Below are positions 3,285 to 56,726 of a stretch of DNA of 64,000 bases, one piece after another. Source of the stretch: Enterobacter phage ZX14. The notes beneath the pieces are model-generated. The model did no database searches and was not told where the DNA came from. It was given only the letters and a program-made list of their open reading frames with translations. The stretch's first letter is position 1, and every line of letters begins with the position of its first letter. Location of the stretch: the sequence record PP236086.1; one strand, written 5' to 3'. The translations under genes were made by a program, and so were the position numbers.

Positions 3285-3336
3285 ATGAGCTCCTTATTAC
3301 GAGGCAAAAATACCTCGTATTATTTATAACAGAACT

Positions 3337-14378: not shown

Positions 14379-14406
14379 AAAAAAAAAAGGACTCCCGAAG
14401 GAGTCC
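14379..14406 (-). terminator. intrinsic terminator (UUCG-tetraloop hairpin + U10)
   Basis: ggactcccgaaggagtcc (14389-14406) is followed on the minus strand by a run of 10 T (14379-14388), directly after the stop of the 504-aa gene. Confidence 0.7.
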
Positions 14407-14411
14407 TATAA

Positions 14412-15926
14412 TTAGACAATTGTATCTTTTAAGAAGGATGCAAACAGAGAACCACGACGAGCATAACCAGCATCGTTAGGATGCACAAGGTCATGCGAAG
14501 TGTATTCTTCAGCATTTTCTTTAGTAATCCAGCCTTGGACGTCAACAAACTTCAGTGAATGTTTTTCAGCCTGTTCCATTACAGCCGTACGAATCTTATT
14601 AATTGCTTCTGTTTCACCTTGCGGCGTAGCAGGACCAATTAAAATGACCGGGACTGTAGGGAAATTGGTTTTAACAATTTCAAGAGCAGCGTCCATATTA
14701 GTCTTAAGTTCTTCTACTCTACCTGCTACAGAATCATTATAGCCTAAGCTAAAGATAATATAATCAGGAACTCTAGACAATGTCAGCAATTTATTGGTAA
14801 CACGAGTTGCTGGGACCCTTTCACCGGTAGAGGTCCAGCCAGAACCACCAATACCATCTGCTAATCCGTCTACGCCTAAATGGTCACACATAATACGGAA
14901 ATCGTTAAAGCTTGGCTGAGTTGCTTCGGTACCGAAGGTATATGAATCACCCATCTGCCATACGAATTTACGAGTACGTGGAGGCTTGGACAACGTATCA
15001 GAAGATGAACCTAAGTTCAAGCCGCCGAATGCACTGTTAACGCCTGCTAATGAATATGAGCGTGATTTACGTTCACCGCCCCAATCAACTAAATAGACAA
15101 ATGAAGAACCAGATGAATCAGTAGTTATGCTCTGTGTACCGACTCTTAACCCATCAACATAAAGCTCACAAATAGTATTAAGACCTGCTAATTTAATTTC
15201 AAATTTAGGAGAGTCAGTAACCCAGTTAGCTCTAAATTGTGTGCCATTTCCGATACCATTCCCACGATAACCAGAAGTAGAATCTTTTACATCAGAACCC
15301 CAATAATCGAAAGCAGTATCAGTACGTTCTTTAGAAACACCTGCATACATAGATGTTGCGTTAGTACCACGATAAGTAAGGTTGAATGTTGCACCTGTCC
15401 CTGTCGTTATATTAGCACCATTGTTTCCATTACCCGCTTCAGTAGCACAAGGGTTCGTAGGAGGAGTTGTGTATACACCACCTTGACGGACAGAAGCGGT
15501 TGTTATAGCACCTTCAGCACCTACTGCAGTAACACGAATTAATGTTGGCGCTGATTTAACTCCACCAGAAACATGAATAATATCACCAAACTTATAACCT
15601 GTACCACCATCAACAATTACTGCCGTATCTAAAGCACCACTACCTTTATAAAGATTCGTTGCAGGAGCAGGAGAAATAGGAGCAAATGGAGGGATAATTT
15701 CAGGAAGTTCTGGGATAATTGGTGGTATTACTTCGCCAAACATTACTTCGATATTATATTTTTGCCATTCTACATCCTGTCCTTTTTCAAAGACTGTAGA
15801 ATATAGTGGTTCTTCACTTAAAGAAAGGTTATAAAAAGAGCCTGCTATTTTATGAGCATTTGAATACACCGTAAAATAAACTGATACTTCTATACCCGAT
15901 CTTAACTTCAAATTTATATATTTCAT
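14412..15926 (-). CDS. Soc-domain fusion protein with C-terminal SGNH/GDSL hydrolase (putative capsid-displayed esterase)
   Basis: Residues ~1-66 align with the adjacent Soc (YINLKL / YVNIKTF; GIEVSVYFTVYSNAHKIAGSFYNLSLSEEPLYSTVFE vs GVEVSVAFKVYSDAHRIAGAHYQIFPSEEPAYADVVE). A Pro-rich linker follows, then a G/T/N-rich domain. The SGNH blocks are GDSY (FVWQMGDSYTFG), GYND (FSLGYNDSV) and DLVHP (SHDLVHPNDAGY). The gene has its own promoter and terminator. Confidence 0.7.
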   Translation of the reverse strand: MKYINLKLRSGIEVSVYFTVYSNAHKIAGSFYNLSLSEEPLYSTVFEKGQDVEWQKYNIEVMFGEVIPPIIPELPEIIPPFAPISPAPATNLYKGSGALDTAVIVDGGTGYKFGDIIHVSGGVKSAPTLIRVTAVGAEGAITTASVRQGGVYTTPPTNPCATEAGNGNNGANITTGTGATFNLTYRGTNATSMYAGVSKERTDTAFDYWGSDVKDSTSGYRGNGIGNGTQFRANWVTDSPKFEIKLAGLNTICELYVDGLRVGTQSITTDSSGSSFVYLVDWGGERKSRSYSLAGVNSAFGGLNLGSSSDTLSKPPRTRKFVWQMGDSYTFGTEATQPSFNDFRIMCDHLGVDGLADGIGGSGWTSTGERVPATRVTNKLLTLSRVPDYIIFSLGYNDSVAGRVEELKTNMDAALEIVKTNFPTVPVILIGPATPQGETEAINKIRTAVMEQAEKHSLKFVDVQGWITKENAEEYTSHDLVHPNDAGYARRGSLFASFLKDTIV

Positions 15927-15975
15927 ATTGGTTCCCTTTGTTTACAAGTTATATTTATTTAATGCTGTGTGTAAA

Positions 15976-16001
15976 CAAAAAAAGGACTCCCGAAGGAGTC
16001 C
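15976..16001 (-). terminator. intrinsic terminator, identical hairpin to 14389-14406
   Basis: ggactcccgaaggagtcc (15984-16001) plus a T-run on the minus strand (15976-15983), after the soc stop. It is followed by GTTTAC..TATAAC early-promoter-like sequence driving the Soc-fusion gene. Confidence 0.65.
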
Positions 16002-16006
16002 TTTAA

Positions 16007-16255
16007 TCAACCAGCAGGTTCTTCAGGTTCAGCTGGAACACCGACAAACATCGCGGCATTCTTGGTAGCCCAATCTTCTGCAGTTTCAACTACATCTGCA
16101 TAAGCAGGTTCTTCAGACGGGAAAATCTGATAATGTGCACCAGCAATACGGTGTGCATCAGAATATACTTTAAAAGCAACAGAAACTTCTACACCTTTTA
16201 CTTCACCAGATGGCAGAGTATGATCGAAAGTTTTGATATTTACATAACCGCCCAT
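16007..16255 (-). CDS. soc: small outer capsid protein Soc
   Basis: 82 aa. MGGYVNIKTF...VAFKVYSDAHRIAGAHYQIFPSEEPAY closely matches T4 Soc. It lies adjacent to gene 56, as in T4. Confidence 0.85.
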   Translation of the reverse strand: MGGYVNIKTFDHTLPSGEVKGVEVSVAFKVYSDAHRIAGAHYQIFPSEEPAYADVVETAEDWATKNAAMFVGVPAEPEEPAG

Positions 16256-16302
16256 AATGGACTCCTTTTAGTTGGATTGATTACAGGCGTATTTATTACC
16301 GA

Positions 16303-17160: not shown

Positions 17161-17183
17161 TATTTAACCTTAATTTAACTTTT

Positions 17184-17191
17184 ATAAATAT
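17184..17191 (+). promoter_or_regulatory. T4-type late promoter TATAAATA on plus strand
   Basis: Exact TATAAATA (gp55-dependent late promoter consensus), 4-16 nt upstream of the GGAGG RBS and the ATG codons of the plus-strand ORF. Confidence 0.4.
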
Positions 17192-56451: not shown

Positions 56452-56670
56452 CTATCGATTTAAAATATTTTTCTTTGCTGTCAGAACAGCCTTAACTTGT
56501 TTGAGGTATTTTTCCAGTAAACGTTGGTGAGTATAATCAGCTTTGAACCCGTTTTCTTTGAAATCTTGTTTAGAGGCCCCAATCATAGTACCTAGTTCAC
56601 GACGGATTTCATCTAAAGATTCAATAGACAGATTACGTAATTGCTTTTCAGACAAATACTGCATATACAC
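56452..56670 (-). CDS. hypothetical protein, 72 aa
   Basis: Small ORF. Confidence 0.3.
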   Translation of the reverse strand: MYMQYLSEKQLRNLSIESLDEIRRELGTMIGASKQDFKENGFKADYTHQRLLEKYLKQVKAVLTAKKNILNR

Positions 56671-56726
56671 CTCTTTAGTTAGTTATATGTATTTATTAAA
56701 GTACAACATGTACCCTAAATTTTACT

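Follow-up and report, generated by a model that had tools for sequence, protein, structure and literature searches.

A question raised by the genome of Enterobacter phage ZX14 (PP236086.1) is whether a T4-like phage has itself fused an enzyme to the capsid decoration protein Soc. The gene concerned lies in a stretch of 64,000 nucleotides (nt), here called the window, and was described in a first-pass annotation of the DNA letters as a 504 amino acid (aa) open reading frame (ORF) in which a Soc domain is followed by a Pro-rich linker, beta structure and an SGNH esterase; this order is correct by Pfam, AlphaFold2 (AF2) and Foldseek, and all sequence features described in the annotation are confirmed to be present. 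The ORF is intact, begins with ATG and occupies 14412-15926 of the minus strand, as had been proposed (stop codon 14412-14414); the annotation gave no strand, and every element of the locus belongs to the minus strand. T4 nanoparticle display is built on Soc and Hoc, whose natural roles are regarded as those of a stabilizing clamp (Soc) and an Ig-fiber (Hoc). The fusion is considered here, with a probability of roughly 0.55, to be a virion-surface enzyme composed of a Soc-type decoration domain, a ~23-residue Pro-rich spacer and a CE2-like SGNH carbohydrate O-acetyl-esterase cargo.

The DNA of the region is 91-94% identical to that of the Enterobacter phages vB_EclM_Q7622, vB_EhoM-IME523, vB_EclM_CIP9 and Entb_45; Q7622 is classified as Kanagawavirus mime (Straboviridae, Tevenvirinae). 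A search of related genomes for the same fusion, suggested by the annotation, finds it in all four phages as full-length, unbroken orthologs of 97.6-99.6% aa identity, and in the metagenomic phage sequences L009 and L010. The annotation had raised the possibility of a frameshifted pseudogene in related isolates; none of the seven near-identical database records, which represent the four phages, has a broken ORF. The GenBank labels of these orthologs are inconsistent and include 'lipase', 'virion structural protein', 'hoc: head outer capsid protein' and 'GDSL-type esterase/lipase'. Upstream of the fusion gene stands the resident canonical soc (16007-16255, minus strand; Pfam Soc 1.5e-19, phrog_1715), whose 82 aa product is the predicted competitor for the same capsid sites.

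A Soc domain joined to an SGNH hydrolase

Residues 1-65 of the fusion (15732-15926) form a Soc-like capsid-anchor domain, which is recognized through BLASTP, the Pfam Soc model, an AF2 model, Foldseek, the invariant residues of the Soc family and nonsynonymous divergence (dN). The claim that the N-terminus is homologous to the neighboring Soc is borne out: residues 3-75 are 40% identical to the resident protein (pairwise BLASTP E 2e-14), residues 10-58 score 39.0 bits with Pfam Soc PF16855 (cutoff 27; E 1.2e-9) and residues 11-61 match the Soc phrog of PHROGs (phrog_1715) at 3e-15; in a search of 1.84e9 proteins with a Soc profile, the representative of the fusion's 85%-identical cluster (P0002) reaches E 7.6e-14. 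The AF2 model of residues 1-68 is confident, with a predicted local distance difference test score (pLDDT) of 82.5; it was built from an alignment of Soc proteins and no templates, so it leans towards the Soc fold. The structural comparison with Soc that the annotation called for was made with this model, and Foldseek matches it to T4 Soc in the capsid (5vf3_O, template modeling score (TM) 0.75), to T4 Soc 9mkb and to RB69 Soc 3ig9, all at probability 1.00 and TM 0.75-0.76, with no further significant matches in the PDB. The only three significant matches in BFVD are stand-alone Socs, the best of which is the Soc of Pseudomonas phage PspYZU05 at a root-mean-square deviation of 0.9 Å. All of the invariant positions in a 25-sequence Soc alignment (11/11) are kept in the domain; relative to the L009 ortholog its dN is 0.095 while synonymous sites are saturated (Nei-Gojobori), which indicates that the Soc anchor is under purifying selection.

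The annotation also regarded the domain as a paralog of the neighboring Soc; the homology stands, but simple paralogy does not, as the domain is 54% identical to PspYZU05 Soc and 40% identical to the resident protein. The same comparison shows that the tip of the N-terminal hairpin is shorter in the fusion by ~10 residues, among them a near-invariant Phe and His, and that the same deletion is present in PspYZU05 Soc, a 78 aa protein that is the sole Soc of its genome; in contrast to the fusion, it stands alone with no enzyme attached. A recent tandem duplication of soc was rejected as the origin of the domain, given only 40% aa identity, upstream regions that are unrelated except for a late motif, and PspYZU05 Soc as the closest relative.

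Further observations concern soc and the head genes in other records. A 97 aa Soc on a 173,535-bp contig (P0084) contains an internal 15-residue tandem duplication (SDAHRIAGAHYQIFP twice) and is otherwise identical to the Soc of the window; the duplication is either an assembly artifact or a natural insertion tolerated in Soc. The record of Shigella phage SP18 (GQ981382; H142) holds one gene annotated 'socb' and two Soc-like places; two soc genes occur in some T4-like phages, so that stand-alone Soc paralogs sharing a capsid do exist and could be raw material for fusions. Positions 111457-114019 of the Q7622 record contain two adjoining 1281-bp genes (L006 21458-22738 and 22740-24020) that closely follow the 1563-bp major head gene; each of the three carries the label 'major head protein', and the 1281-bp pair may be a tandem duplication of a gp24-type vertex protein. 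As Soc does not bind gp23-gp24 interfaces, such a pair would bear on Soc-type binding places.

The Pro-rich linker VIPPIIPELPEIIPPFAPISPAP (aa 66-88; 15663-15731) is the junction of anchor and cargo, recognized from the sequence and its low pLDDT; it starts where the resident Soc carries a Pro/Glu C-terminal tail. The cargo has a mass of 46 kDa, within a protein of 54 kDa, and begins with a small beta domain (aa 89-185; 15372-15662) that is modeled as all-beta with pLDDT >90 and matches phrog_32129. It continues with a jelly-roll beta-sandwich (aa 186-315; 14982-15371) that resembles the N-terminal domain of CE2 esterases in Foldseek, and ends with an SGNH/GDSL hydrolase domain (aa 316-504; 14415-14981) established by Pfam Lipase_GDSL_2, residue conservation and fold matches. 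The Pfam match (PF13472) covers residues 325-490 with 63.5 bits (cutoff 32.9; 4.7e-17); PHROGs assigns residues 69-503 to phrog_9703, 'head decoration', and NCBIfam gives nothing for the fusion beyond a sub-threshold GDSL match. The small beta domain is weakly similar to domain I of the T4 tail-sheath protein gp18 (PDB profile 3foa, E 1.7e-4), and a weak Pfam Gp18_dom_I match is found in the CC31 and PEi20 orthologs of the cargo.

The SGNH blocks are GDSY (326-329), GGSGW (360-364), GYND (395-398) and DLVHP (479-483), and the Ser-Asp-His triad and the oxyanion residues are complete; the catalytic codons lie at 14943-14945 (Ser328), 14736-14738 (Asn397), 14490-14492 (Asp479) and 14481-14483 (His482). 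In an alignment of 83 homologs, G326, D327, S328, G363, N397, D479 and H482 are invariant in every sequence (83/83); the Ser of GDSY and the His of DLVHP, on whose conservation the annotation had made its reading depend, are thus both retained. A full-length AF2 model based on the same 83 sequences has a pLDDT of 85 overall and >90 for residues 80-504, and presents, after the Soc domain, a disordered linker, the small beta domain, the jelly-roll and an alpha/beta/alpha SGNH domain. Residues 1-71 of this model are mostly below pLDDT 50, and it is uninformative on the arrangement of domains across the linker; the Soc domain (A2) and the full-length protein (A4) were modeled separately, a joint alignment (A3) having been dropped as it spread the short Socs over the whole length.

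The structural check of the C-terminal part against SGNH esterases, likewise proposed at the outset, returns two-domain CE2 esterases (2wab, 2wao, 2waa, 4xvh) aligned over 346-360 columns with TMt 0.60-0.69, and matches of ~350 columns to Est2A and SsfX3 (TMt 0.6-0.7); many other SGNH structures match the three-layer fold of the cargo, TesA among them (TMt 0.7-0.76). Sequence identity to the CE2 structures is only 11-18%, a PDB profile search found no close sequence relative of the cargo with a solved structure, and Pfam CE2_N (PF17996) does not match the window protein and remains below threshold in the CC31 ortholog (13.8 bits, cutoff 27.9). Judging by the CE2-like architecture and the invariant triad, carbohydrate deacetylation is the probable activity. 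Candidate substrates are enterobacterial common antigen and the O-acetylated forms of O-antigen, capsule or colanic acid.

One cargo on several anchors

The strongest, though indirect, support for display on the capsid comes from the occurrence of the same cargo on a Hoc capsid-binding domain in Karamvirus and other Kanagawavirus phages. Proteins of 504-511 aa in which residues ~90-504 of the fusion recur at 50-56% identity are encoded by Karamvirus (CC31, PG7 and many phages of Enterobacter and Klebsiella), by phages of Cronobacter and Erwinia and by the Kanagawavirus phages PEi20 and PEi26; the cargo of CC31p007 and of the PEi20 protein labeled 'hoc' is ~51% identical to that of the fusion. 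In CC31 and PEi20 the gene lies between genes 39 and 39.1, and residues 9-74 of its product are 43% identical to residues 294-360 of T4 Hoc, which are the capsid-binding domain and include the conserved ESRNG motif (PMC10385173). The 511-residue protein of PG7 has been described, in one sentence, as having an N-terminal capsid-binding domain and a C-terminal GDSL lipase (PMC10385173). The soc-associated protein is not itself a Hoc: BLASTP with the Hoc binding domain matches only the clusters P0003-P0008 and neither of the Soc-fusion clusters (P0001, P0002), and Q7622, which has no gene at the 39/39.1 locus, keeps a separate canonical 487 aa Hoc at the inh/24 locus. The 'hoc' label of the CIP9 ortholog (MN882610, NC_048849) is a misannotation that has spread through the family.

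Among the 83 cargo homologs, the N-terminus is Soc in two clusters, the Hoc binding domain in six, and either of tail-fiber type or short in the rest; the latter include the prophage tail-fiber domain PF08400, Mtd_N, and peptides of ~50 aa in enterobacterial prophages. The cargo follows a 90 aa N-terminus in a protein of Erwinia phage vB_EamM_RisingSun (P0039) and its relatives, and in a Salmonella lambdoid prophage a cargo homolog lies between gpJ and the side tail fiber. The fusion itself was rejected as a tail-fiber-anchored esterase, since its N-terminus is Soc and its gene is placed in the soc/56/61 region, outside the tail gene cluster. In all versions the cargo is joined at one and the same Pro-rich point, immediately ahead of the conserved L-x-K-G-x-G with which the beta domain starts. 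On the simplest reading of these sequences, the N-terminus would serve as a virion-attachment adaptor for the cargo, a mobile surface-glycan esterase. It is proposed that the cargo is normally a tail-fiber-anchored module, which T4-like phages have grafted onto both of their dispensable decoration anchors, Hoc (Karamvirus, PEi20) and Soc.

A single genus displays three states of this module: Hoc-anchored at the gene 39 locus in PEi20, Soc-anchored at the soc locus in Q7622 and the window, and absent from Kosakonia phage 305. In phage 305 a single terminator is all that separates soc from the downstream gene, and its flanks are 93-96% identical to those of the window at the nt level; in a blastn comparison with the window both flanks overlap by 30 nt on the single terminator of phage 305. 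The cassette is therefore an insertion, as the annotation had supposed from its appearance as a module: a promoter-ORF-terminator unit (14383-16007) was inserted and is bounded by a duplicated segment of ~30 nt, consisting of the last base of a stop codon and the terminator (14383-14412 and 15978-16007). The two identical UUCG terminators said to bracket the gene are also present; the 18-nt sequence ggactcccgaaggagtcc occurs at 14389-14406 and 15984-16001, and both copies score in a terminator scan as minus-strand UUCG-loop intrinsic terminators, the upstream one (15981-16004) terminating soc and the downstream one (14388-14407) the fusion gene. The flanks of the downstream copy (ttata...gcttt) match those of the single soc terminator of PEi20 and phage 305 and are the ancestral ones.

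The composition of the cassette bears no sign of recent import (GC 0.34-0.44, flanks 0.34-0.46). The metagenomic phage L009/L010 (cluster P0002, 85% identical; L009 6001-7509) has the same order of soc followed by the fusion, and the substitutions that separate the two genes are unevenly distributed: the SGNH domain (14415-14981) is the most conserved part, with 99.5% aa identity, a synonymous divergence (dS) of ~0.2 and dN/dS 0.02, in contrast to a dS from ~1 up to saturation in the rest of the gene; dN/dS is 0.11-0.20 for the linker and the beta domains (Nei-Gojobori). From this difference in dS, the 3' third of the gene looks to have been recently exchanged between lineages, in a mosaic history of recombination. 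In phage 305 a homing endonuclease gene, which is absent from the window, is found just upstream of soc between two NTP-pyrophosphohydrolase genes (L008 2706-3356); the neighborhood of soc is a hotspot for insertions.

The fusion is rare. A Soc-profile hmmsearch of 1.84 billion representative proteins gives 20 hits, of which all true ones are of 47-86 aa except the fusion representative P0002; an 884 aa protein (P0168; E 1.2e-4, five stretches) was rejected as spurious, being a bacterial surface protein rich in repeats. A word-indexed search of 5.8 billion clusters for Soc finds only proteins of 54-98 aa and no fusion, no other Soc fusion was found in BFVD, and IMG/VR holds three loci with the junction of Soc and cargo, one of them presumably CIP9. 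The fusion, at 504 aa, thus lies outside the stand-alone size of Soc, all other true homologs having 47-98 aa. Within the searched libraries it is the sole natural fusion of Soc and is limited to a single small lineage. The annotation knew of no characterized Soc-enzyme fusion; this holds insofar as no other true Soc fusion was found, but fusions of a decoration protein to an enzyme as such are not new, given the PG7 Hoc-lipase (PMC10385173), and the gene of the Soc fusion is itself deposited for four phages. Of natural fusions of this kind, the Hoc form alone has been noted before; no discussion of the fusion gene was found in the searched papers that mention IME523, Q7622, CIP9 and Entb_45.

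Expression, proposed function and alternative explanations

The promoter of the gene was originally given as GTTTAC..TATAAC. This sequence is present on the minus strand as a sigma-70-type GTTTAC-N17-TATAAC (15948-15976; -35 at 15971-15976, -10 at 15948-15953) and is a possible additional promoter. A generic sigma-70 scan, which finds no more sites than in shuffled sequence, does not report it, and the late-promoter-like octamer AATAAATA overlaps it at 15952-15959, 25 nt upstream of the ATG. A second AATAAATA precedes the resident soc (16290-16297), exactly where the soc of PEi20 has the canonical T4 late promoter TATAAATA; at the same distance upstream, the Hoc-anchored orthologs have AATAAATA in CC31p007 and CATAAATA in PEi20. 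The motif scan finds WATAAATA five times in the window (11.4 expected), and all four minus-strand copies are 19-36 nt upstream of an ORF start. Given its position, its rarity and its presence upstream of soc and of the Hoc-anchored orthologs, the promoter is probably the late-type AATAAATA rather than, or besides, the sigma-70-type site, and late co-expression with soc is the more likely mode. The remaining copies of the octamer, which is depleted in this mostly early region, lie at 3321-3328 (minus), 56690-56697 (minus) and 17183-17190 (plus); the two further minus-strand copies are 36 and 19 nt upstream of small ORFs, one of 58 aa that starts MKQYWITL and one of 72 aa (56452-56670), which may be unrecognized late genes.

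With these elements the following course is proposed. Transcription of the fusion gene would be late, driven by a AATAAATA late-type promoter of its own and concurrent with that of soc; after head expansion the Soc domain of the product would bind inter-capsomer gp23 sites in competition with the resident Soc, to give a mosaic head on which some Soc positions carry the esterase a few nanometers above the shell. The enzyme would then remove O-acetyl groups from polysaccharides of the host surface or matrix, such as O-antigen, capsule/exopolysaccharide or enterobacterial common antigen, and this receptor-modifying or receptor-destroying activity would allow virions to cross, or detach from, acetylated glycan layers. 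T4 heads are known to take up engineered C-terminal Soc fusions; cargos above ~30 kDa no longer fill all 870 sites, and ~300 copies are reached with cargos of 90 kDa (PMC3012670). The size of the cargo, the competition of resident Soc and a weaker-looking ribosome-binding site together predict sub-stoichiometric, mosaic decoration.

Several points weigh against an active esterase on the head. The residues missing from the hairpin have to be set beside the finding that Soc has two gp23-binding sites (PMC3012670), and as the domain is more like the Soc of a Pseudomonas phage than the resident Soc, its fit to the phage's own gp23 is not guaranteed. The 46 kDa cargo is above the ~30 kDa limit for full occupancy and would compete with a well-expressed resident Soc, and the Shine-Dalgarno sequence of the fusion (GGGA) looks weaker than that of soc (AAGGAG). 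SsfX3, the best structural match to the cargo, is not a hydrolase but an acyltransferase; in some CE2 enzymes the active site doubles as a non-catalytic binding site. A literature search for virion proteomics, cryo-EM or enzymology of a Soc- or Hoc-anchored esterase found none, and the single PG7 sentence was the only discussion of such a protein that it returned.

The shortened hairpin and the lack of a proteomic sign of incorporation in the literature search would fit a soluble esterase that is no part of the virion and is set free at lysis or acts in the course of infection, in which the Soc-like domain would be a remnant or a tag for folding or oligomerization; the sigma-70-type site could provide the early, non-structural expression that such a protein might have. 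This explanation is considered unlikely, though it is to be taken seriously, as purifying selection on the Soc domain is strong, every family-invariant residue is kept in it, and the late-type promoter motif is common to the fusion and soc. Furthermore, the gene has no lysis-cassette context and its product no signal peptide, and sister proteins with Hoc or tail-fiber anchors at exactly the same junction are sensible only if the N-terminus is a virion anchor.

It is improbable that the protein is instead mainly a capsid-displayed glycan-binding adhesin, which would hold virions to mucus or acetylated polysaccharide in the manner proposed for the Ig domains of Hoc, catalysis being secondary or absent. 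Such a role has parallels in CE2 members whose active-site cleft binds carbohydrate without catalysis (title of PDB 2w9x) and in the proposal of Hoc as an adhesin or environment sensor (PMC10385173); however, the triad Ser, Asp and His and the oxyanion Gly and Asn do not vary across very different phages, and the exceptional conservation of the SGNH domain relative to L009 fits maintained catalysis. Attachment of the Soc-like domain elsewhere (near vertices, neck or tail), or only to capsids of a co-infecting or ancestral phage type, is very improbable: the affinity to the Pseudomonas phage Soc, the shorter hairpin and the variation of Soc occupancy with local capsid curvature (PMC9958956) would allow it, but fold and invariant residues are those of a canonical Soc. 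We know of no precedent for binding of Soc outside the gp23 inter-capsomer sites.

Comparison with known systems and meaning of the fusion

The virion-surface enzyme proposed here is closest in design to the Hoc/GDSL-lipase proteins (CC31p007, PG7, PEi20 'hoc'), with which it shares the cargo (50-52% over ~410 aa), a Pro-rich linker, an N-terminal decoration domain of T4 type, an xATAAATA motif upstream and the phage subfamily. They differ in anchor and in locus: Hoc is monomeric and present once per hexamer, 155 per T4 head, whereas Soc is trimer-forming with 870 inter-capsomer sites, and the Hoc-anchored gene lies between 39 and 39.1 while the fusion gene is downstream of soc. The anchor has the fold and family-invariant residues of T4 and RB69 Soc (PF16855; 3IG9, 5VF3), and the position of the cargo at the Soc C-terminus is that of engineered T4 Soc display fusions (PMC3012670); however, this fusion is natural, six times longer than any other Soc homolog found, shortened at the N-terminal hairpin, and coexists with a separate canonical soc.

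The combination of jelly-roll and SGNH domain is shared with the CE2 esterases CtCE2, CjCE2 and Est2A and with SsfX3; in contrast to these, the phage fusion retains the triad Asp (D479) and has extra N-terminal domains and a virion anchor, at a sequence similarity below the Pfam CE2_N threshold. SGNH deacetylases of tail fibers and tailspikes (PF08400, Mtd_N; Salmonella prophage) have a cargo 35-50% identical and follow the same logic of an N-terminal virion anchor, but they are present in few copies at the tail, where the receptor is engaged; the fusion would be borne by the head, where its copies could number tens to hundreds. A functional analogy, and no more than that, exists with the hemagglutinin-esterases of influenza C, toro- and coronaviruses, which are virion-surface O-acetyl-esterases of SGNH fold with receptor-destroying activity; these are envelope glycoproteins rather than capsid decorations, with no detectable homology to the fusion beyond the superfamily fold.

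From these comparisons a wider hypothesis may be tentatively drawn, held at somewhat less than even odds: T4-like phages would use their two dispensable decoration sites as interchangeable sockets, and a divergent Soc paralog together with ordinary Soc would form a mosaic cage bearing tens to hundreds of active O-acetyl-esterases of receptor-destroying or matrix-remodeling function. Nature offers the material for comparison, with phage 305 as an empty-site control and PEi20 and CC31 as an anchor swap, and the inconsistent annotations of the family (lipase, hoc, virion structural protein) are corrected. The fusion also raises the questions of what purpose head-borne enzymes serve and how 870 sites are shared by two Soc paralogs. 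Loss of acetyl groups from the surface glycans of Enterobacter could bear on host range or biofilm penetration, and would be relevant to phage therapy against the E. cloacae complex. If the proposed function is true, the fusion would be the first enzymatically active decoration of a Soc site and a natural precedent for T4 Soc display; together, the Soc-enzyme, its sister Hoc-enzyme and their tail-fiber relatives would show that phages exploit decoration sites as modular catalytic sockets.

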